Shown one piece after another: positions 859-34,290 of a stretch of DNA of 35,020 bases; position 1 is the first letter of the stretch, and every line of letters begins with the position of its first letter. The notes under the pieces were generated by a model. The model had not been told where the DNA came from, did not search any database, and saw nothing but the letters and a program-made list of their open reading frames with translations. The translations under genes were made by a program, and so were the position numbers. The stretch is from the IMG/VR virus record IMGVR_UViG_3300015370_000032, positions 1-35,020 of that record, one strand, 5' to 3'. The stretch is from a virus. Lineage: Duplodnaviria; Caudoviricetes.

Positions 859-3170
859 GAGATCACCCGCTGCAGGTTGGAGCGCAGCCCGCGATCGCCG
901 CGCTGCAGGGCCTCATTCAACGGGCCAAGCACAGCCTGTGGATTACGGCGCATCATGTCGGTGATGGATTGGGCATCGGCGGCAATGATGGTTATGGAGA
1001 TGGGAGCGGCTGCCGGCGCCGGAGCGGCGGATGAGTTTGGTCGAGCGGAGGATGCCCGCACCTGGCTCTGGTTCATCACCAGCTCGGATTCATTTTCCGC
1101 AAAGGAATACCGGCCGCCGGACCGCAAGCCGACCCCGACCACGGGCTCCTTGATCCAGCCGCCGTCGGCAAAGGCGAAATTAAAAGGAGCAGGGGTGCCG
1201 ACCATGGAATCATAGGACCCGGTGTAGGATGTCCCAGGCGCAGCGGCGGAGGTGATTCCCCCACTGCCTCCGAACATTCCGGCAAGCGAGGTGGCAGCCG
1301 TGCCCAGCAGCCCGCCGAGATCTCCGCCTTTGGCGAATTCACTGCCGAACAACCCCATCATCATTTGCGCGGAGGCCCACTGGTCCACCATTTGCAGGGT
1401 CATTTCCTCGAAGCTGTCCAGCCAGTCATCGCTATCCTTGCGCAGGGATCTAAACAGGGATGCCCCTTCGTCCTGAATATTGCGGAACGCCTGGATCTGG
1501 AACTGGGAAAGATCGTCGGTTTTATCCTTGATGGCGTCTATTGCCTCTATCTGTCGCTCAGAAAGCCTGTCCTGTATCTCAATGGCTTTTTCTGCGGAGA
1601 TAATCCCTGAGTTGTGCGCGTCCAGAATGGCAATGTCCAGTTCCCGGTACTGCTGGGCCACCTTAGCCACGGCCTGTTCATACTCCGGCAGGGAGGCCGT
1701 CAGGGCATCGTGATAGGATTCGGTGGTTTTTTTGAGTTCGTCCTGGGCTTTTTTCTGTTGATCCAGATAGTCAGCCTGAATAGCCGCGTTTTCCGCAGCA
1801 GCCATCCAGGTGTCGATCAGTCCCTTGTCGCCGAATTTTTCCCGCAGTTCATCGGCTCGCTGGGTGATCTGCAGCAGCTCTTTGTCAAGTCCGTCCAGGC
1901 CGGAGAGGTTGATCTGTTGTTCCAGGTCGCGGCGGGTGTCCGCCCATTGTTCGGCGAGTTTTTTGGCCAGCTTGATGGCGTTTTCATCCGGAGATGGCGA
2001 ATGAGAGCCTGTGCCGGTGCGACCGGCGAAGGAGGGAGCTGACGCGCCGACCCCGCTTTCCAATGCGTTGTAGCGCTCGGCGAGGGCCATCAACTGCCGA
2101 TCGGTTTCCGCATACCTGTTCTCGTACATGATGTTGTAGTCAGCCATCCTCTGCATCCGTTCTTGCGAGCTTTTAACACCAAGCGCAGATGGGATAGCGG
2201 AAGGAAGCGAGGCCAGGAAGGTCATGGTGCCGCCAGCCTTGTCCAACAACATGGAAAGTCGCATGATTTCTGCCTGAGCAGACATAAGGCCGAGCTTGAA
2301 ATCTTTCAGCCAAACGGTGGTGGCCTCCTTGTTGCGGTCACCCCAGTCATCCATTGCGTCTGCCACCGAGATAATATTCTCGGCCAGGATGCCGGTGAGA
2401 CCTCCGGCCTGATCAGTATTGGAGATGAGTTTTCCCAGCGAATTATTCACAACGGACAGGGCCCGACCCACTGTTTTTGGCATCTCGGAAAACTCTCGAT
2501 TGACGGCTTCGGACTGGCTTATCAAAGCTTTCACCACTTCCTCGGCGGTGAGTTTTCCTTCTTTCCCAAGAGCCCGGAGCTGACCAACACTGACCCCCAT
2601 GCCATCTGCAATGGCCTCAGCGAGGCGTGGAGCCTGCTCCAGAACAGAGTTGAGTTCTTCGCCGCGCAACACTCCTGAGGCAAAGCCCTGGCCTAATTGG
2701 ACAATGGCCGCTTGGGCTGAATTTGCGGAAGTGCCGGAGACTACCAAAGATTTATTGATCGCATCGGTAACCGTCAGCCGTTGTGAATCTGTGATATTCA
2801 AATCCTTGGTTGATCTGGCGATTCTGGTATAGAGATCGATGGTCTGAACGTAGCCTTGACGGGACTCTTGAGACAAGCTGTACAACTGCTTTTCGATAGT
2901 CGCCAATTCTTCCGCTGAACTGGTCACCAGCCGAAGACGGCCATGCAGGTTCTGATATTCGTCGGCTGTATTGATCAGTTCCCTGACCCCAAGCCCGGCG
3001 GTGATGGCGGCAAAAGTGGTTTTTAAAATATTCGCCGCTTTGTCCAGACTTCGCATCCGTTGTTCGGCGGCATGGGTGGAGCGTTCCACCATGACCATGG
3101 CCTGGTTCATCGGGGCGGTGGCCTGGTCTACCAGTCGGAGGGCTATGCTGATCGCGGCGTCTTGATTCAT
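855..3170 (-). CDS. Tail tape measure protein
   Basis: 771 aa helical Ala/Leu-rich; TMP motif QLGQGFASGVLRGEELNSVLEQAP; C-terminal FADGG. Confidence 0.95.
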   Translation of the reverse strand: MNQDAAISIALRLVDQATAPMNQAMVMVERSTHAAEQRMRSLDKAANILKTTFAAITAGLGVRELINTADEYQNLHGRLRLVTSSAEELATIEKQLYSLSQESRQGYVQTIDLYTRIARSTKDLNITDSQRLTVTDAINKSLVVSGTSANSAQAAIVQLGQGFASGVLRGEELNSVLEQAPRLAEAIADGMGVSVGQLRALGKEGKLTAEEVVKALISQSEAVNREFSEMPKTVGRALSVVNNSLGKLISNTDQAGGLTGILAENIISVADAMDDWGDRNKEATTVWLKDFKLGLMSAQAEIMRLSMLLDKAGGTMTFLASLPSAIPSALGVKSSQERMQRMADYNIMYENRYAETDRQLMALAERYNALESGVGASAPSFAGRTGTGSHSPSPDENAIKLAKKLAEQWADTRRDLEQQINLSGLDGLDKELLQITQRADELREKFGDKGLIDTWMAAAENAAIQADYLDQQKKAQDELKKTTESYHDALTASLPEYEQAVAKVAQQYRELDIAILDAHNSGIISAEKAIEIQDRLSERQIEAIDAIKDKTDDLSQFQIQAFRNIQDEGASLFRSLRKDSDDWLDSFEEMTLQMVDQWASAQMMMGLFGSEFAKGGDLGGLLGTAATSLAGMFGGSGGITSAAAPGTSYTGSYDSMVGTPAPFNFAFADGGWIKEPVVGVGLRSGGRYSFAENESELVMNQSQVRASSARPNSSAAPAPAAAPISITIIAADAQSITDMMRRNPQAVLGPLNEALQRGDRGLRSNLQRVIS

Positions 3171-18239: not shown

Positions 18240-18989
18240 TCATTCATCCGGTGGCATGTTCTCGGCAAGCTCAACCTCGATATCCATTGCCGAGGCATAC
18301 TGATTGAACCAGTCATCCCTTGCTGTCAACAGCAGCTCGATCAGCATGCTCGCCTTGGCCGGATCGCCGCCGACCACGGAAATAAATTCCTGCACCCGGC
18401 TGTAAACCATGTGGTTGTAACCGGCATCCAGGGCAACGGCGCGGCCGGCCAGCTCCTGCTCGACTTCCGCCCGGAGCAGGTACTTGCCGCGCTCGACATC
18501 GAACTTGAAGTTTTCCCGCTTCTGCTGGACCCTGATCCGCTCGATCTCTTCTTCGAGCTTGATCCGCTGCAGGTCGTCCTGGTCTTCCCTGTCCTTCTTG
18601 CCGGTTTCCGCACGAGGTACCCAATCCTTGGCATACTTGAGCACGGCGCGCCGGGTATAAAGCCCCTGGGCATTTCTGACCAGCTTTCCCTGCTTGACGT
18701 GCTGATAAAACTGAGTCTTCTCCAGATTCCAGCCGTTGTCCTGCAGGTAACGCAGAACAGCGGCACCGTTCTTGGTGTCCTGGAACTGCGCTTCCGGTTC
18801 CTGATCGGCCGCTTTTTCCTTGGCCAGGTGTTTCTCGATCATGTTGGTTGCCCGTTCCATGGCCACCAAATTGGTCGCGGAGGGATCCTGCAAGGCCCGT
18901 TGCTTGGCCTCCTCCTTGGCGGATATCAGGACCGACAAATCCGTTTTTCCGGACTCCGAAAGGATGCTATCCAGTTCGTTGCGATCCAT
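18240..18989 (-). CDS. Probable terminase small subunit (Nu1-like)
   Basis: wHTH-like KTQFYQHVKQGKL...GLY followed by coiled coil ending ERGKYLLRAEVEQE; start overlaps the DUF488 stop. Confidence 0.62.
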   Translation of the reverse strand: MDRNELDSILSESGKTDLSVLISAKEEAKQRALQDPSATNLVAMERATNMIEKHLAKEKAADQEPEAQFQDTKNGAAVLRYLQDNGWNLEKTQFYQHVKQGKLVRNAQGLYTRRAVLKYAKDWVPRAETGKKDREDQDDLQRIKLEEEIERIRVQQKRENFKFDVERGKYLLRAEVEQELAGRAVALDAGYNHMVYSRVQEFISVVGGDPAKASMLIELLLTARDDWFNQYASAMDIEVELAENMPPDE

Positions 18990-19336
18990 TACCTGCCAAG
19001 CTCCCACTCCGGCAATTCGATGCCTAGAACCTCTCTCACGTGCGCCGCCAGCTCCCCGCGATGGCATTCATCTCGGTTTTTTTCGTAGCAGCAAAATATG
19101 GGGTTCGGAACCTTCCCCTCGATATAGGCAAGCACTTCCGCCAGCCTGTCCGGAGTCGGGAAGCGGTCCCGCAAATCCCGCCTGTATTGCTCCCGCCAGT
19201 CTTCCGCCCAGGGATTAGACGGGGCAAGCTCTACAACCCACAGCCCTCCCTTGCTGAAAAACCGCGGACGCTTGAGAGATATGCACACCTTTCGTTCCGC
19301 CGGCGCCTTGCTTGCAAAATAGGATGTCTGGATCAT
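18989..19336 (-). CDS. DUF488 family protein
   Basis: IQTSYF, ELAPS, FCCYEK..ECHR motifs. Confidence 0.8.
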   Translation of the reverse strand: MIQTSYFASKAPAERKVCISLKRPRFFSKGGLWVVELAPSNPWAEDWREQYRRDLRDRFPTPDRLAEVLAYIEGKVPNPIFCCYEKNRDECHRGELAAHVREVLGIELPEWELGR

Positions 19337-19364
19337 TGCTTTTTCCTCTGCTCTTTTCTATAGT
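19336..19364 (+). promoter_or_regulatory. Sigma70-like promoter P1 for antisense sRNA-1
   Basis: TTGCTT(19336-41)-17 bp-TATAGT(19359-64); predicted start falls at the base of the first hairpin. Confidence 0.6.
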
Positions 19365-19371
19365 CCACATC

Positions 19372-19515
19372 GTGCAATATCCCTCCCTTTTAGGGGTATT
19401 GTGCAGGCCCTGCCCCGTTGGCGCGGGGCGGGGCCACTTTCCGGCTCTATAAGCCGGGGCCTCAACTCGGAAGCCAGGACTCTCGGAAACTCCTTGAGTC
19501 CTGGCTTTTTCTTCT
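19372..19515 (+). ncRNA. Putative structured antisense small RNA 1 (about 145 nt)
   Basis: Four consecutive hairpins (19372-404, 19406-435, 19441-457, 19471-507) whose non-Watson-Crick positions form G-U pairs on the + strand; last hairpin followed by a T-tract. Confidence 0.6.
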
Positions 19516-19522
19516 TTATAGT
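19494..19522 (+). promoter_or_regulatory. Sigma70-like promoter P2 for antisense sRNA-2
   Basis: TTGAGT(19494-99)-17 bp-TATAGT(19517-22), nested in the sRNA-1 terminator. Confidence 0.6.
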
Positions 19523-19528
19523 GTCCGC

Positions 19529-19600
19529 AGAACCTTCCCCTTTAAGGGGGAGCGGTTCTTCTCTTCGGCCCCTCCTGTTGCAGCGGGAGGGGTTTTTCTT
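19529..19600 (+). ncRNA. Putative antisense small RNA 2 (about 70 nt)
   Basis: Hairpin 19529-559, linker, terminator hairpin 19569-592 + TTTTT; 14-nt complement to the RBS of the large ParB gene. Confidence 0.62.
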
Positions 19601-19610
19601 CGCCTTCCGG

Positions 19611-21305
19611 TCATGCTCCTAGAATCTCCGAGGGCACCCGGCCAACCAGATTGACGCCGGACTCCAGGAAGACCCTTTTCAGCTCTCCTTTCTTACATTT
19701 TCCGTAGGCTCCTTCCGGCTTGCCGATTGTTTCAGTGAGGAATTTCACCGCCTGTTCCTCTGCGAAGATCCCCAGGGACTCGCCCATGGCCATCATTTCA
19801 GCTACGGTTTTCTTGTCGAGATACTCTTCGGTGATCGCCCACTCCTGGGCCATGTCGATGCCAAGATGCTCCGCCGCCCGCCAACGTCCGGCACAGGTCA
19901 CCTTGTCTTTTTGCAGAAAGGTTTCCAGGGCGGCGGCCACCAGCTCTTCCTCAAGCTCCTGGCCGCTCATGGTGGCCAGCTTGACCATGATCTCTTCGTC
20001 CGAAAGCCTGGTCCAGGTATCAATCTCCTTTTCCCCTGCCATTTTGTGGCGTTGAACAAACCACGGCTGCAGATCCCGGTTGGAAACGAGCTGGGCAAAG
20101 AGGATCAGCCGCCGACGGCTCGCTGAATCGACCCCACCGGCCTGTATTTTGGCGGGCAAGGCCTCCCGGAAGAAAAGATCGCGGAAGTGCTCTCCGTGCC
20201 ATGCCACCCTGGGGCCAGCCGCCTTGGCCGCTGCAGTCTTTTCCACGCTCTTGCCTTCACTCCAGGCTTCGGTGGTGGTTTTCTTGAAACAGGCCTTGTC
20301 GCCCATGCAGACCTTGGGCCGGTCCACCTTGCCGGTGAGCGACACCAGGGAAAAGAAGGACTCGCAGGATTTGCATGGTTTCGGCGTCTTCTGCCAGCTG
20401 CCGATCTCCTCGTAATCATTCCACTGAAAATCCGATGAAAAACGGAAGCCGTTGGTGGGCAGTTTGTGCTTTGCCCGGAAATCATTCCAGTTGTCCTTGA
20501 GCCAGTTGTTCTGTTTCTGCTTGAAGCATTTCGGATTGTTGCACTGAATGGCATCAGAGGCGGAGCCGAACAGGCTCTTCTGGACATCCGAGTTCTGGAA
20601 GCAGGTGGCGCACCCGGCTTTGTCGACATCGAAAAAAGCCGACTTCAACTCCGGAGATTCACTGTCGATCTTGCGGGCCAGATCCCGCACCGCCACATGC
20701 CGGAACCTGGATTGTTCTTCCATCCATTCAAACAGTATTTTTACCTGCTTTTTGTCACCAACCCGGGTGAGTTGTTCCAGGTGGCCATATTTCAGGCTGC
20801 CCTGTGCCCAGGCCTCAAGAACCTCTTTCGGAAGCTCCAGTATCTTGACGCGGCGGCGGATATAGGCAGGGTTGATACCGATCCTCTCGGCCAGAATCGG
20901 GACCGCTTCGTCGCCCATCCGGTCGATATATAATTTGAAGCTGTTTGCCTCCTCCAGCTCTGTGATGTCGTTGCGCTGGAGGTTCTCGATGGTCATAATC
21001 TCAAAGGCTTCGTTGTCGTCCAGATCGCGCACCATGGCCGGGATGGCATGCTTGGACAGACCCCCGTTTTCCTTGGCAAGGTCGCAACTGACACGCCAAC
21101 GGCGCTCTCCGAAGACTATCTCGTACTTCTTGTCCGGGAGCTGTCGGACCATAATGGGCTGGAGCACTCCTTTTTCACGGACCGAGGCAAGCAGGTCCTC
21201 ATAAGCCTTTCCGGTAAAGTTCTTTCTTGGGTTCAGTGGGTTGGCAATGATCTTGTTCAGCTTGATCTGTTCGATTGTCTGTTGTTGCGCGGTGTTGGTG
21301 GTCAT
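19611..21305 (-). CDS. Large ParB/RepB/Spo0J-family protein (PRTRC-ParB-like)
   Basis: NPRK, GVLQPI.VR, GERRWR, ENLQR, HTH; Cys cluster CATCFQNS...CNNPKCF; 564 aa. Confidence 0.9.
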   Translation of the reverse strand: MTTNTAQQQTIEQIKLNKIIANPLNPRKNFTGKAYEDLLASVREKGVLQPIMVRQLPDKKYEIVFGERRWRVSCDLAKENGGLSKHAIPAMVRDLDDNEAFEIMTIENLQRNDITELEEANSFKLYIDRMGDEAVPILAERIGINPAYIRRRVKILELPKEVLEAWAQGSLKYGHLEQLTRVGDKKQVKILFEWMEEQSRFRHVAVRDLARKIDSESPELKSAFFDVDKAGCATCFQNSDVQKSLFGSASDAIQCNNPKCFKQKQNNWLKDNWNDFRAKHKLPTNGFRFSSDFQWNDYEEIGSWQKTPKPCKSCESFFSLVSLTGKVDRPKVCMGDKACFKKTTTEAWSEGKSVEKTAAAKAAGPRVAWHGEHFRDLFFREALPAKIQAGGVDSASRRRLILFAQLVSNRDLQPWFVQRHKMAGEKEIDTWTRLSDEEIMVKLATMSGQELEEELVAAALETFLQKDKVTCAGRWRAAEHLGIDMAQEWAITEEYLDKKTVAEMMAMGESLGIFAEEQAVKFLTETIGKPEGAYGKCKKGELKRVFLESGVNLVGRVPSEILGA

Positions 21306-21335
21306 GGTGGTTCTCCTCTTCGTTTTCTGTCGTTT

Positions 21336-21614
21336 TTATTGGACGCTTGTTGCAGCAAGCTGGTTCAGATCGAGGCCGCAAGTTGCCGCCTCGATCATGG
21401 CTCTCATTTCGTTTGATTTGTAGCTGGCCAGGGCAGACGCTTTATCGTCGAAGATGCGGCCAGCTCCTCTCCAGACTCTGTGTGAGGCGTTTTTGCAGCA
21501 CACCTGTATGGTTCCGTCTCGGTGGACCGAGACAAAGGCCTCCTTGTTTCCGGCTTTCAGGGTGAAATATTTCACGTTGTTGCCTTCGCTCTGTTCCAAG
21601 ATCATGATATCCAT
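21336..21614 (-). CDS. Hypothetical protein (92 aa)
   Basis: SD GAGGGG before ATG 21614; fills the gap between DUF6908 and ParB. Confidence 0.75.
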   Translation of the reverse strand: MDIMILEQSEGNNVKYFTLKAGNKEAFVSVHRDGTIQVCCKNASHRVWRGAGRIFDDKASALASYKSNEMRAMIEAATCGLDLNQLAATSVQ

Positions 21615-21624
21615 GGCGAGCCCC

Positions 21625-22029
21625 TCAAATTCCCTGCTGATAACGGATATTCTCCATCCACATGCCGGTAAATGCCGCAATATCCCGCTGCTGCCGAGGG
21701 TTGAAACGGACAGCCTTGCCCTCATCATCGCAGGTGACCGCTTTACGACAGACCCCGATGTAATCCTGGATAATGCTCTCCGGGTAATAGTTGCCTTGCT
21801 CGTCGCGGATAAAGACAATTTCCGGATCCCGCATCAGGTCGCCGTTCTGCTCTCCGTAATGTGCGACGCTGATCAGCTCGCAACTCTGCTTTCCGACGAC
21901 GATGGACCCGACCCTTTCGACAACAACCGGCATAAACGTGTCGTTGTTGCTTAGTTTGAGGTAGTTTTCCGTCATCATGGACCGCATTTTGTCGAGTACC
22001 TTTGTTGCTTTTTTGTTCACTTTTTTCAT
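21625..22029 (-). CDS. DUF6908/DUF1249-like protein
   Basis: FMPVVVE, SVAHYGEQNGDLMRDPEIVF, W..NI..Q motifs; SD GGAGG. Confidence 0.82.
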   Translation of the reverse strand: MKKVNKKATKVLDKMRSMMTENYLKLSNNDTFMPVVVERVGSIVVGKQSCELISVAHYGEQNGDLMRDPEIVFIRDEQGNYYPESIIQDYIGVCRKAVTCDDEGKAVRFNPRQQRDIAAFTGMWMENIRYQQGI

Positions 22030-22076
22030 TTCCGTGTCCTCCGTTTTGGTAAAAAGTAATGTTATTCCATATACTT

Positions 22077-22105
22077 ATGATACCAAACGGGCCACGGAAG
22101 TACAC
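22077..22105 (-). promoter_or_regulatory. Putative promoter of the DUF6908-hypothetical-ParB cassette
   Basis: GTGTAC-17 bp-TATCAT with extended -10 TGn and an upstream A-tract. Confidence 0.45.
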
Positions 22106-22115
22106 TTTTATTTGC

Positions 22116-23456
22116 TTATTTCCTCGTTTTTTTTGTCCATATTTCAAGCACTTGCGCGATATTGTGCGCCCCGGCCTCTGCACAGTAGTTGAGCAGGAAA
22201 CCGCCCTCCGCCTCTTTGCGTTTATGGAGCGTAAAGATGCCGCGATACTTCATGCTCACCGGGTGCTTGGCAAAGGCGCTGGTGGTGATCCAGCCAAAGT
22301 CCTCTATGTAACGCAGGTCAAGGATCTCCTTGATCTCTTTGGAGAGCAGACAGAGCAACACCAGTTTTGCCAGCCGCTTTTCAACGCTGGGCACTGCCAG
22401 GTCGGACATCAGGTAGATCATGGGCCTGTCATCCGGCAGCTTCCACTGGTGCGAGGACGGGCAGAAATCCGCCTTGCCGATTACGTGGCCGTCGAGCAGG
22501 AAGGCCAGGGAGACGCCGACGCCGCCGGTGAAATAGTCGATCCGCGAAGAGAGGAACAACTCATTCATTCGGATAGATTGACCAAAGGTGATTTTTGCAA
22601 AGGAGAGCTGTTCTTTTCCGGTCACTTCCCGGTCGGCAGGCCAGATAGGGCCGATGGCTTCACTTTTGACTACTTTGCGACCCACGATCCGGCGGCGATC
22701 GCTTTTAGCGATGATGTGGGAAAAACTGTTCCGGCCGCGCGGCAGAATGGCGGACGGCTGGCCAAGGATTGCATGCACATCCGGGAGGTCTTTTTCCAGG
22801 ACCACAAAATATGAGGTAAAGCGGGAAATTTCCTCGTACAGTTCCATGCTTTTGTCGGTCATTTCCTTGTAGGCAGGTTGTTCCCAGGCGATTGAGGCGC
22901 GCAACAGCTTTTCCAGGCGCTCATAGCCTGCCCGGTAAGTCGGGGGGAAAGCGAACACCGTATGCTCCGAGGATTTCTCGGCCAGAAGCTCAAAGCCGTC
23001 TTTGGCCTGGTAGTCGATGGGGCCTATATGCTTCTTGTATATCTGTAGCTTCTCTCTGGTGGTGGCGAGCAGGGTTTCCCATTCCAGCCGATACTGGCGC
23101 ATGACCTTTTCTTGATATGGGTTCTTTATCTGCCACACTTCCCGCAGATCGTAGAGCAGGGCGATGGAGGCCACGACATCCACGGGCGAGTCGAGACGGA
23201 GCATCCCTTGCAACTGTTCCGGGCACTCCGGGTTTTCGCTGACATCAAAAGGGCTGTCCGCCAGAAATGCGCCAAGAGCCGAGGTGTAAAGGGAAACATC
23301 ACAAGCCGTTATGGGCCCGGTATATCCTCCGGAACGCAGGGCCGAAGCAACGGTGAAGTTTCCGGCGCCGATCAGCAGCACCGGGTGCTCAATTTCTTTT
23401 GCGTATTGCGCCAGGGTCTGCCGGACAGAGGCGGCGACTGCTCCGATAAATGACAT
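22116..23456 (-). CDS. Putative anti-restriction adenine methyltransferase fused to a GNAT-like C-terminal domain
   Basis: SAM motif LLIGAGNF, catalytic-like FPPTY; C-terminal LMSDLAV..KRLAKLV...SMKYRG; start ATG 23456 just after the ParB-N stop. Confidence 0.72.
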   Translation of the reverse strand: MSFIGAVAASVRQTLAQYAKEIEHPVLLIGAGNFTVASALRSGGYTGPITACDVSLYTSALGAFLADSPFDVSENPECPEQLQGMLRLDSPVDVVASIALLYDLREVWQIKNPYQEKVMRQYRLEWETLLATTREKLQIYKKHIGPIDYQAKDGFELLAEKSSEHTVFAFPPTYRAGYERLEKLLRASIAWEQPAYKEMTDKSMELYEEISRFTSYFVVLEKDLPDVHAILGQPSAILPRGRNSFSHIIAKSDRRRIVGRKVVKSEAIGPIWPADREVTGKEQLSFAKITFGQSIRMNELFLSSRIDYFTGGVGVSLAFLLDGHVIGKADFCPSSHQWKLPDDRPMIYLMSDLAVPSVEKRLAKLVLLCLLSKEIKEILDLRYIEDFGWITTSAFAKHPVSMKYRGIFTLHKRKEAEGGFLLNYCAEAGAHNIAQVLEIWTKKTRK

Positions 23457-23457
23457 C

Positions 23458-24198
23458 TCAGACCACCTCTTCCAGCTTTTCCAGCAGGCGCAGCATGGCC
23501 AGACTGCCGTTCTTGATATTGTCCTTCTTCTTGACCGCGAGCAGTTTTTTGAAAAAGGCGTCAAACTGATCGGCCTGGGCAAGATAGACGTTATCTGAGG
23601 GGATCCGCCCGAGTTCGTCCATAATCTCTGCGACAGCCCCGAATTCCATTTCGGTGAAGGCGAAAGTCACCTGCCTGGTGCGCGGCTGCGGGGTGCTGAA
23701 ATTAAGCAGCTTTACATTCTGCAGCTCACCGATTGTTTCGCTGGAAAGCCCGGCGTAGCATTTTGCTTTGATGTCATCGATGCGGGCCCAGAGTCCGGCA
23801 AGAATCTGCTGGTCATCTTCACCGACCAGGGAGTTATGGGAGAGCTGGATAGAAATTTTTTGGCTCAATTCTATTGCTTCGATGATCACGATTACCATGA
23901 TCCATTGGATTCCGGCCTCGACAGAGGCTTTTACCCTGTGATTTCCGGAGAGCACTTCCAGCCGGTTGCTGTCATCCATCGGATAACAGAGAGGGACACT
24001 GGAAAGCCGCTGATCCTGCCGGAGGTTGGCCACCAGCTGCTTGAAGGTTTCCTTTTTGAAATAACGGGCATTTTCTTTGAGAATAACCAGGGATGCCGGA
24101 TCAACAATGCGGAGTTCTGCGGAATCTCCAAAGAGAAGGCGGCTGGTTTCCTTGAGGGCTTCGTTTTGACGCGCAATATCTTCTGGCTGCATGATCAT
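23458..24198 (-). CDS. ParB N-terminal (Srx/ParB) domain protein
   Basis: NARY, SSVPL, VLSGNHRV.A, QLSHNSLVG.DD motifs. Confidence 0.85.
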   Translation of the reverse strand: MIMQPEDIARQNEALKETSRLLFGDSAELRIVDPASLVILKENARYFKKETFKQLVANLRQDQRLSSVPLCYPMDDSNRLEVLSGNHRVKASVEAGIQWIMVIVIIEAIELSQKISIQLSHNSLVGEDDQQILAGLWARIDDIKAKCYAGLSSETIGELQNVKLLNFSTPQPRTRQVTFAFTEMEFGAVAEIMDELGRIPSDNVYLAQADQFDAFFKKLLAVKKKDNIKNGSLAMLRLLEKLEEVV

Positions 24199-31736: not shown

Positions 31737-32543
31737 ATGGAATTGGCAACTATACCAAAAAGAGCTGAGGACCGTATAAAGACAGGGATAAAGGCATTTT
31801 CCAAAGTAATCGAAGGCGCAAAGGCCCGGGATGTAAATGAGTCTGACACCGTTACCATCGTGGTGGATATGCTCTCAACCATCTGCGGCTACGACAAATA
31901 CACCGAGATCACCAGCGAGTATGTGATCCGTGGAACCTATTGCGACCTTGCCATTAAGGCCGGGGATGACAAGCCCACCTTCTTGATTGAAGTCAAGGCC
32001 ATCAATATTCCTCTCAAGGAAGCCCACCTGCGGCAAGCCATCAACTATGCCGCCAATGAGGGGATTGAGTGGGTCATGCTTACCAATGGTGATCACTGGC
32101 AGGCTCACCGGGTAATCTTCGGCAAGCCGATAAAAACTGAGGTGGCTTTTGATTTCAGTTTTTCCGACACGGCCAAGCTGCCGATGTTGACCGACTTCTT
32201 TTTCCTGATCAGCAAGGAAGGTGTGAGCAAGTCCGCCATCGCCACATTTCACGAAGAATGCCAACTTACCAGCAAGCACATGGTTGCAGCCGCACTCATG
32301 ACAGAACCAGTGGTGGGTGCGGTGCGGAGGCAGCTCGTTGCCGTCGGAAAAGGCGTGAAAATTACCGACGATCAGATTCTTTCCACCCTCCAAAACTTGG
32401 TGCTCAAGCGTGATGTGCTGGAGGGGGAAGAGGCTGTCAAAGCAAAACGACGAATGACAGCAGCTAATCGTCCTAAGAAAAAATCTGGCCAGGGAGCTGA
32501 AGTCAAGTGTGTTCCGGAAACAACGGCGCAGCCGGCAACCTAG
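31737..32543 (+). CDS. Stand-alone type I restriction HsdR N-terminal domain protein (moron)
   Basis: NESDT, CDLAI, IEVKA, QAINYA, LTNG nuclease motifs; no helicase, HsdM or HsdS nearby. Confidence 0.88.
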   Translation: MELATIPKRAEDRIKTGIKAFSKVIEGAKARDVNESDTVTIVVDMLSTICGYDKYTEITSEYVIRGTYCDLAIKAGDDKPTFLIEVKAINIPLKEAHLRQAINYAANEGIEWVMLTNGDHWQAHRVIFGKPIKTEVAFDFSFSDTAKLPMLTDFFFLISKEGVSKSAIATFHEECQLTSKHMVAAALMTEPVVGAVRRQLVAVGKGVKITDDQILSTLQNLVLKRDVLEGEEAVKAKRRMTAANRPKKKSGQGAEVKCVPETTAQPAT

Positions 32544-32580
32544 CATGAAGTCCGTTGTCATTGGGAGTGGGAGACAAACC

Positions 32581-33015
32581 ATGCCTGGTCGAGTCCTAAT
32601 TCTTACTATTGTTGCTTTATCAGTTGTGGGTTGTGCTACGACTGTACCCACGATGGCAGAGCTGCAGCCTGTACCGGAAAATAGAGTTTTTGCCAACCAA
32701 TTACAAACTGAAGGCAATGCTGAACTGGCTGTTCTCAGAGACAAATCATTCTCTGGGTCAGCCGTTGACTACCGGCTATTTGTTGATGGGAAATTATCCG
32801 CTCAATTGGCATGGGGAGAATTCGTGATTATGTCCCTACCAGCCGGAGAACGCATCATTGAAATTCGCCATCCCAGTCCTTTAGTGGGAGCAATCGGTGA
32901 TTCAGCGACATTACGCGCGGAGCCAAATGTCACATATTACTACCGGGTCAACTCCGATTCGGGGCAAATTCGACTCCTCCGCACAACGGCTGAATCAGCA
33001 ATGACACCACCCTAA
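32581..33015 (+). CDS. Lipoprotein, DUF2846-like (moron)
   Basis: Signal peptide with lipobox VVGC; RD....GSA..Y.LFVDG....L..GE...LPAGE pattern; SD GGGAG. Confidence 0.75.
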   Translation: MPGRVLILTIVALSVVGCATTVPTMAELQPVPENRVFANQLQTEGNAELAVLRDKSFSGSAVDYRLFVDGKLSAQLAWGEFVIMSLPAGERIIEIRHPSPLVGAIGDSATLRAEPNVTYYYRVNSDSGQIRLLRTTAESAMTPP

Positions 33016-33069: not shown

Positions 33070-34290
33070 ATGCCAGCAAACATCAAAAAACAGGGAAGCA
33101 AATGGAGGGTACGCTGGAGGCTATACCTTCCAGATGATTCCTGGCTGGAGCGGTCACGCTTGACCGCCGATAAAGGGCGGGCCAAAGAGGTCAAGGCCAT
33201 GGCTGATCTTATCGAGATCAAGACCAGACACCAGGAGAGCACCGCCGCGGATCTCGAGTACTGGCAACGCCATCGCCTGATAAGCAGGCAGGATGCCGAG
33301 CTGCTTAATACATTCAAAGATGCCAGAAAGACATTGGCTCAAGCTGCCGAGGAATACAAACAATCAAACGATTGCGGAAAAGAAGAGATGGAGGCGAGGG
33401 CGGTGCGCATCGATCGCGTGGTGGCGATATTGGGTCCGGAAAGATCGGTCGGCGAGATCCGCCACTCTGATGGCGAGCGCATCAAGACTGTGTTGCGGGA
33501 TGGCTGGAAGGACAACAAAGACGCAAAGGAAAAGAAATACAAGGCGGTAACCATCAACAAGCATCTGCAGGACGGCAAGCGCATGTTCACCCTGCAGATG
33601 GCCGAGGGTGTCATCGAGCACAATCCCTGGGGGGTGCTCAAGGGCGCGAAGATCCCTAAAGAGGAAGTGATAGACCATACTGTTCTCAGCCATGATGATA
33701 TTGTCAAGGTCCTGGCCGAGGCCGAGATCAGCGACAAACGCACGGATCCTGGAAACCCGGCCAGCATGGGAGGAAATCTCACTCTATTTCTGCTCATGTT
33801 TTTCGGCACCGGCCTGAGGCGCAAGGAAGCAATGGCCGCGAAGATGGAAAACATCGACTGGCAAAGTCGGAGCCTGCGACTGATGGAAACCAAGAATGGC
33901 GAGGATAGGTCTGTCGGTCTCGGCGATCGGCTATACTTATTATTGCTGAACAGAAAAGGGGAAACCGGCTACATCCTGCCGCGATTTTATCTCAATTCGG
34001 TGAGCAGGGCAATCAGTCGACATTTCAAGCGGTGCGGATTCAAGATGCGCTTGCACGACACCAGGCACACATACACCACAAGGCTGCTCGACCTCGGAGT
34101 GCTCCGGCACAATGCCATGGGACGAACCGGACACAAGGACTCCAGAATGCTGGATCACTACACCCACCCGATCTTTGGCGAGGTTTACGAGGACCAGTTT
34201 CCATTCATGCAGCAGGTCAAGGGGGATGAAGCAGAAGCTGCCCAGCAACCACCTAAAAATAAGAAAACTGTCTTGCGAGTGGTAAAATAG
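33070..34290 (+). CDS. int: Tyrosine recombinase/integrase
   Basis: Catalytic R (TGLRRKE), K (TKNG), HxxR (HDTRH), GH, Y; next to the att site. Confidence 0.96.
   Translation: MPANIKKQGSKWRVRWRLYLPDDSWLERSRLTADKGRAKEVKAMADLIEIKTRHQESTAADLEYWQRHRLISRQDAELLNTFKDARKTLAQAAEEYKQSNDCGKEEMEARAVRIDRVVAILGPERSVGEIRHSDGERIKTVLRDGWKDNKDAKEKKYKAVTINKHLQDGKRMFTLQMAEGVIEHNPWGVLKGAKIPKEEVIDHTVLSHDDIVKVLAEAEISDKRTDPGNPASMGGNLTLFLLMFFGTGLRRKEAMAAKMENIDWQSRSLRLMETKNGEDRSVGLGDRLYLLLLNRKGETGYILPRFYLNSVSRAISRHFKRCGFKMRLHDTRHTYTTRLLDLGVLRHNAMGRTGHKDSRMLDHYTHPIFGEVYEDQFPFMQQVKGDEAEAAQQPPKNKKTVLRVVK

Follow-up and report, generated by a model that had tools for sequence, protein, structure and literature searches.

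Introduction

To our knowledge, few phage RNAs are known to control genes of their own phage in trans. The c4 antisense RNA of phages P1 and P7, which we take to be Rfam family RF01695, is cut from a precursor and has two separated pairing elements. The sar RNA of phage P22, like the OOP RNA of phage lambda, overlaps its target site directly. In type I toxin-antitoxin (TA) systems, in which an antisense RNA adjoins its target gene, the toxin is typically a small hydrophobic peptide.

In the passages of two papers that deal with it, c4 is a phage RNA of ~75 nt that blocks translation by pairing around the ribosome-binding site (RBS), with pairing parts that likely lie in loops (PMC12197685, PMC8198154), and it is placed in the same operon as its icd-ant target (PMC8198154). 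PMC12197685 describes sar as blocking initiation of ant translation and OOP as promoting RNase III decay of the cII mRNA, and one of its tables lists sar as acting in trans. SR4, of the bsrG/SR4 system of Bacillus subtilis, makes first contact through its terminator loop and affects both decay and translation of its toxin-gene target; it stops translation by lengthening an internal mRNA helix until this covers the Shine-Dalgarno (SD), rather than by pairing with the SD (PMC3834814). A YUNR U-turn is a feature of loop-loop antisense systems of the CopA/CopT type, according to PMC4485353.

Here, we describe a candidate phage RNA, sRNA-2, encoded opposite a parB gene in a 35,020-nt stretch of viral DNA (IMG/VR record IMGVR_UViG_3300015370_000032, positions 1 to 35,020; hereafter the window). 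On balance, we think it likely that this predicted 74-nt, two-hairpin RNA represses parB in trans through two sites in the parB leader, a reading built on sequence comparison and folding. Like c4, sRNA-2 has two separated elements that are predicted to be complementary around an RBS. Unlike c4, it has its own promoter-like site and lies on the opposite strand, behind its target gene, which is of ParB type rather than an icd-antirepressor operon. Compared with sar and OOP, its RBS target is 1.75 kb away and the match is imperfect, and in contrast to SR4, whose target is a toxin gene, it would pair directly with the SD of its target.

Results

A candidate RNA lies opposite the end of parB in a lambdoid prophage

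The window holds most of a lambdoid prophage, with nearly all genes on the minus strand. The gene set comprises divergent repressor and cro-like genes, D5-type and primase replication genes, terminase, portal, capsid and tail genes, and an integrase gene (33070-34290). After the repressor, two plus-strand genes for an HSDR_N-domain protein and a DUF2846 lipoprotein (31737-33015) are likely expressed in the lysogen. The closest relative of the prophage is found in G039, a genome of the same genus, and its matching record is referred to below as L043.

The site of interest is a gap that separates the parB stop (19611) from a minus-strand gene for 115 aa (18989-19336) with a weak likeness to DUF488, below the cut-off. 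parB (19611..21305, minus strand) encodes 564 aa with ParB_N and HTH domains, Cys clusters and a helical C-terminus. Upstream of it lies orf92 (21336..21614, minus strand), which stops 30 nt before the parB start and gave no match in a family search. It is preceded by a DUF6908 gene (21625..22029, minus strand), which we infer to be the first gene of a DUF6908-orf92-parB unit; an extended -10 promoter-like site before it (22077..22104, minus strand) was called by a scanner in the relative and read by eye in the window. Back to back with this putative DUF6908 promoter, a plus-strand promoter-like site (22046-22075) points into the 3' end of a methylase-like gene.

In genome G060, a homologue of the DUF488-like gene lies directly 3' of a methylase-like gene, with neither parB nor the hairpins between them. 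Because the flanking genes are adjacent there, DUF6908, orf92, parB and the RNAs look like a separable unit, judging from this one genome. The flanking minus-strand genes in the window are a methylase-like/GNAT-like gene and a ParB_N-like gene (22116-24198), together with the DUF488-like gene (18989-19336). These genes may form a phage DNA-modification module, which the DUF6908-orf92-parB block interrupts here and whose members are adjacent in G060.

On the plus strand of the gap, a sigma70-type promoter-like site (19494..19522, TTGAGT-17-TATAGT) precedes the sRNA-2 candidate (19527..19600, predicted ends), which consists of a 5' hairpin, a pyrimidine linker and a terminator-like hairpin (19567-19594) with a U-tail. 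Its 3' end is ~10 nt from the parB stop, and the two are convergent. The predicted fold, with its two hairpins, has a z-score of -3.9, and 0 of 200 shuffles were equally stable; the minus strand of the same region reaches -2.3 only. Nothing in Rfam reached its gathering score anywhere in the window. Among 24 sequencing runs, no RNA run was listed as carrying the sequence, which is evidence neither for nor against its transcription. A 32-aa minus-strand ORF across sRNA-2 is not kept in the relative and was rejected. Just upstream of sRNA-2 lies a strong hairpin followed by a U-run (19469..19512, plus strand; z -5.6), whose 3' arm contains the -35 box of sRNA-2.

Two sites in sRNA-2 are complementary to the parB leader

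The first-pass annotation had reported a 14-nt complement to the parB SD, with one G-U pair and about half of its length in an unpaired linker, and both observations hold. The sequences GGTTCTTCTCTTCG at 19554-19567 (site b, the anti-SD seed, plus strand) and GGTTCTCCTCTTCG at 21309-21322 lie 1755 nt apart, and their single difference, at 19560/21315, produces a U-G pair. On the minus strand, the target (site b') spans positions -17 to -4 of the parB leader, includes GAGGAG and stops 3 nt short of the AUG at 21305. In the predicted fold of sRNA-2, 6 nt of the seed are paired in the 5' stem and 7-8 nt are free.

A second leader site, of the loop-loop kind, adds to that annotation. The terminator loop of sRNA-2, UUGCAG (19578-19583), together with its upper stem (site a, 19576..19587, plus strand), complements a 5-bp hairpin with a CUGCAA loop located in the last codons of orf92 (site a', 21345..21360, minus strand). 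The match is perfect over 9 nt and extends to 12 bp with two G-U pairs. In the parB leader, the CUGCAA loop is 27-32 nt upstream of the SD match, and the two sites are colinear, in an order fit for one antiparallel complex. Co-folding sRNA-2 with the leader gains ~18 kcal/mol over the separate folds in the window and 13 in L043, and opening the seed costs 8 kcal/mol in the accessibility model, which weighs against pairing. Co-folding also predicted that the U-tail pairs with AGAAAA in the leader; this contact is not kept in L043 and was discarded.

On the minus strand, these elements follow the same order in the sRNA-2 copy as in the leader copy. The copies resemble each other in the two pairing elements alone; their stems are unrelated and their spacers measure 8 and 25 nt, which argues against a recent duplication. 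No start codon follows the minus-strand copy at 19554.

The parB leader is the top-ranked predicted target of sRNA-2

Match length alone is not rare: counting the sRNA-2/parB pair, the 2.83-Mb genome has 22 non-self matches of 14-15 nt that contain no more than one G-U pair. Targets were ranked by helix energy plus opening costs, in a helix-only scheme of our own rather than IntaRNA, over the start regions of 2309 crudely called genes of at least 100 aa, of which 2234 had accessibility computed and 75 were dropped. The parB leader came first of the 2234, at -12.2 kcal/mol (next, -9.9), the rank that the first-pass annotation had expected of it. The pairing does not stand out in length, and it ranks first among these start regions once accessibility is weighed.

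A hairpin with the CUGCAA loop was found in one of the 2234 leaders, that of parB; its 8-mer alone occurs in four. When sRNA-2 was dinucleotide-shuffled, 1 of 300 shuffles reached the parB energy on parB and 10 of 300 did so on any of 37 contig start regions. Shuffling the linker only gave 4 of 300, one of the 300 being the unshuffled sequence. The neighbouring gene contains a 13-nt match to sRNA-2 at 19108-19120, which we dismissed as a target because it is coding and involves the paired 5' stem.

Both predicted pairing sites persist in close prophage variants

We compared three close prophage variants, which are not independent. In L043, whose ParB is 87% identical to that of the window, the sRNA seed and the free linker are unchanged. 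The L043 leader retains the 17-nt hairpin and 11 nt of the SD site without change, its spacer and flanks have a different sequence, and immediately upstream it carries an insertion of 27 nt. All 23 base pairs of sRNA-2 are kept between the window and L043, one via a double change and two via single changes, which is consistent with a structured RNA; in a shuffle control limited to these two sequences, 233 of 500 scored as high, so that the comparison carries no statistical weight. The variable pairs include G-U pairs that are possible only on the plus strand. The -10 box TATAGT of the window is replaced in L043 by TATGAT, another good -10 box (TTGAGT-17-TATGAT), and both genomes have a promoter-like site and a U-tail on the plus strand. 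Within orf92 of the window, an inverted repeat of 14 nt (21368-21396) shortly precedes the leader hairpin; in L043 this repeat is broken by the 27-nt insertion.

Variant X8 differs in the leader at 21306, 21309, 21328, 21332, 21343 and 21369, with a 13-nt core of the SD site and the leader hairpin intact, among the 11 of its 19 differences that were listed. Neither X8 nor X10 has a change inside the seed among the rows listed. Run X16 gave nothing on the parB leader, and X17 and X18 are the same 454-nt record, which ends before the leader hairpin. Compensatory changes between sRNA and target, which the first-pass annotation had named as a check, were not seen in the three variants, where every change trims an outer pair (L043 leader, 19576; X8, 21309). 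The target cores would be conserved anyway because they are also the RBS and orf92 coding sequence, and we take their conservation as weak support for the predicted pairing.

A DNA search of 301 genomes of the order with the sRNA-2 region found a homologue only in G039. Model R2 gave strong scores only in G000 and G039 among 151 genomes, and the 18 weaker loci that were inspected looked like ordinary terminators. Phage and plasmid collections gave no real match to the sRNA-2 region.

The predicted target gene encodes a large ParB-type protein

ParB proteins are CTP-dependent DNA clamps. The protein encoded here passes the cut-offs of both TIGR00180 (128.3 bits versus 58.45) and PF02195 (95.5 versus 26.3), and with the PRTRC ParB family TIGR03734 it scores 195.1 bits, under the curated cut-off of 278.6. 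It resembles PRTRC ParB and Noc in having ParB_N and HTH domains, a length of ~560 aa and N-terminal structural matches; no other PRTRC gene was found among 44 ORFs scanned with Pfam and PHROGs. The predicted structure (mean pLDDT 91.8, pTM 0.61) matches Noc and ParB over the first ~200 residues only, with no listed structural match for the C-terminal half, and it has invariant cysteines across 86 aligned sequences. Homologues number 226 at E up to 1e-40, the ParB of P0003 and P0004 is 86% and 83% identical, respectively, and in three other phage loci (L017, L019, L020) parB sits between primase and terminase. PADLOC gave no match for ParB.

Among 13 more distant loci, whose ParB is 37-47% identical and which include some redundant and two truncated entries, 0 have an sRNA-2-like partner within 4-5 kb, and model R2 likewise finds no such element in them. 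In L017, the gene after parB has a 14-nt RBS match to the RBS of parB. Since this is the next gene's own RBS, it shows how such matches arise and supports a relic origin for the match in sRNA-2.

The UUGCAG/CUGCAA loop recurs in other phages

Scans of viral contigs took 120 loci each for the loop motif and for a scrambled control (one control loop), among the matches listed, corresponding to 88 and 86 distinct contexts. The motif lay in stems of at least 7 bp in 23 of its 88 contexts, versus 9 of 86 for the control. Among the same listed matches, it was accompanied by a U-tail in 11 cases (control, 0), and in 10 the other strand had an SD and ATG at a distance of 8-50 nt (control, 1). Two other loop patterns were in long hairpins less often (6 of 81 and 6 of 106 contexts).

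Individual loci illustrate the range of arrangements. In L083 (2150-2910, plus strand), a CUGCAA hairpin precedes the SD by 20-35 nt in each of three consecutive small genes, the stems differing from gene to gene, and the 5 kb examined yielded no partner RNA. Between repressor and integrase, L090 carries a promoter-led two-hairpin element with UUGCAG and CUGCAA loops (2483-2620, minus strand), which has a ~26-bp complement to the leader behind an HTH gene (~1170-1260, minus strand); CUGCAA hairpins lie downstream on the same strand. This appears to be a c4-like layout in an unrelated phage, in which a loop combined with a long complement would pair much as proposed for sRNA-2. Hairpins with UUGCAG loops, most with a U-tail, also lie just upstream of an opposite-strand gene start in L098, L117, L123, L130, L145, L149, L062, L357 and L323. 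In L098, a promoter-like site in the 5' end of the gene would give a ~50-nt cis-antisense RNA over the SD and start codon.

A broader, speculative reading is that UUGCAG/CUGCAA forms a kissing-loop code of temperate phages across phyla. A CUGCAA hairpin upstream of the RBS would mark genes for silencing, antisense RNAs with a UUGCAG terminator loop would dock there, and a second, gene-specific segment would pick the target, in cis or in trans; sRNA-2 would then be a trans member that grips its mRNA at both ends. We consider a code of this generality unlikely, and regard the recurrence of the loop as providing leads for a wider class, not proof of one.

A second candidate RNA and adjoining hairpins lie upstream of sRNA-2

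The gap contains another candidate, sRNA-1 (19336..19445, plus strand), which has two hairpins, an anti-SD loop, a UUGG loop and a separate promoter-like site (read by eye). Its best Rfam match is PtaRNA1 (RF01811), at 26.2 bits (E 0.004) and below the gathering score of 47. The likeness to that family lies in two stacked hairpins and an anti-SD-like loop; sRNA-2 has no match to it. In the helix-energy ranking, sRNA-1 showed no outstanding trans target (-8.6, -8.4, -8.2). Its first loop complements the SD and ATG of a 51-aa ORF (19215-19370, minus strand) that overlaps the DUF488-like gene in another frame and is also 51 aa in L043, a length that the overlap may force. The layout of sRNA-1 and this ORF recalls hok/mok/sok. 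The region 19443-19512 (plus strand) contains a small hairpin, whose stem is kept in the relative with a changed pair, and then the strong hairpin with its U-run, the last hairpin overlapping the -35 box of sRNA-2. sRNA-1 may therefore reach ~145 nt.

Discussion

We propose that the promoter-like site would drive transcription of the 74-nt sRNA-2 from the plus strand and that the RNA would then meet the parB leader in one of two ways: the UUGCAG and CUGCAA loops would kiss first, or contact would start at the linker with its 7-8 free bases. Pairing would next open the base of the 5' hairpin to form an 11-14 bp helix over the RBS, and this helix would block 30S entry at the SD and turn parB initiation off. 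We found no minus-strand terminator after parB, between 19340 and 19611, so sRNA-2 would be a full 74-nt complement of parB 3' read-through, on which RNase III cleavage could add to the block. RNase III is present in the genome; a search of this 91%-complete genome with PF17209 found no Hfq, which is a point against the model. The likely purpose would be to prevent production of a DNA-binding ParB-type protein while the shared promoter drives DUF6908 and orf92, for example in a lysogen.

The kissing step is the least certain part of this mechanism, for two reasons. The leader hairpin lies within the last orf92 codons, where translating ribosomes would melt it, so that it could form only in the intervals between them; this counts against the model. 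In addition, UUGCAG and CUGCAA lack the YUNR of CopA/CopT-type systems, which the UUGG loop of sRNA-1 has. As for the first-pass claim that ParB translation is silenced with c4-like logic, the first rank among 2234 leaders, the second loop site and the cores kept in three variants argue for it. Against it, the expected compensatory changes did not appear, none of the 13 distant loci shows the arrangement and, as L017 illustrates, two RBSs can match over 14 nt for no regulatory reason.

The same features could arise in other ways. sRNA-2 may be real and act only in cis, as one of two or three convergent plus-strand units that meet the parB-to-terminase transcript, in which case the leader match would be the remnant of a shared unit made up of a hairpin and an RBS, which may have belonged to a gene since lost from behind parB. 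This would fit the lack of a minus-strand terminator in 19340-19611 and the absence of an outstanding trans target for the neighbouring sRNA-1. It would also fit the frequent placement of the loop in hairpins 8-50 nt upstream of phage gene starts (10 of 88 versus 1 of 86 in the control, among the matches listed), its repetition before three genes in L083 and the 14-nt match between neighbouring RBSs in L017. However, an RNA acting only in cis would have no need to keep the leader match, the linker has no structural role and yet is unchanged in the relative, and the two copies have unrelated stems and spacers, with no start codon after the downstream one; we judge a purely cis role to be fairly unlikely, if plausible. 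Less probable still is an element of the mRNA strand, in which a protein or nuclease would bind a CUGCAA hairpin and the purine tract that follows it at either end of parB, the plus-strand promoter and terminator being incidental. Retention of the loop with different stems in many phages and the shared minus-strand order of both copies speak for such an element, but the plus strand folds better (z -3.9 versus -2.3), the variable pairs include G-U pairs open to that strand alone, and promoter and U-tail lie on it in both genomes.

If chance were at work, a pyrimidine linker between terminator-like hairpins would simply happen to match a purine-rich RBS; the 22 genome-wide matches of 14-15 nt, the 10 of 300 shuffles that do as well on some contig start region and the 13-nt match at 19108-19120 speak for this. 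Against it, the top target of 2234 is the adjacent gene, which independently has the only matching loop hairpin, and we think coincidence very improbable. The type I antitoxin role that the first-pass annotation had suggested, with ParB as a toxic protein, fares worst and strikes us as scarcely credible. The layout would allow it, with sRNA-2 adjoining its target ~10 nt from the parB stop, convergent with it and complementary to its 3' read-through, and the terminator loop would make the first contact, as described for bsrG/SR4 in PMC3834814. But ParB as a toxin is unsupported, because this is a 564-aa protein with a ParB/Noc-like N-terminal half rather than a small hydrophobic peptide, and because none of the 13 distant loci has such a partner within 4-5 kb. 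PADLOC has no match for it, and its gene sits between primase and terminase in L017, L019 and L020.

The best reading of sRNA-2 is accordingly that of a c4-like two-site antisense RNA that is not a member of c4, PtaRNA1 or the type I TA systems; no c4 family match appeared among 14 Rfam matches up to E 10. Our literature search, in a collection with few subscription journals, returned no description of the UUGCAG/CUGCAA loop or of this arrangement.

The pairing proposed here is an exact two-site model that can be tested in a standard reporter. Were the loop code general, the targets of many unannotated phage RNAs would be readable from sequence. The trans-acting phage RNAs with which we compared sRNA-2 come from enterobacterial or Bacillus phages, and this candidate belongs to a Desulfurivibrio-related prophage of a groundwater bacterium. 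Its target is a large, widespread and uncharacterised ParB-type protein, which this phage would keep switched off.
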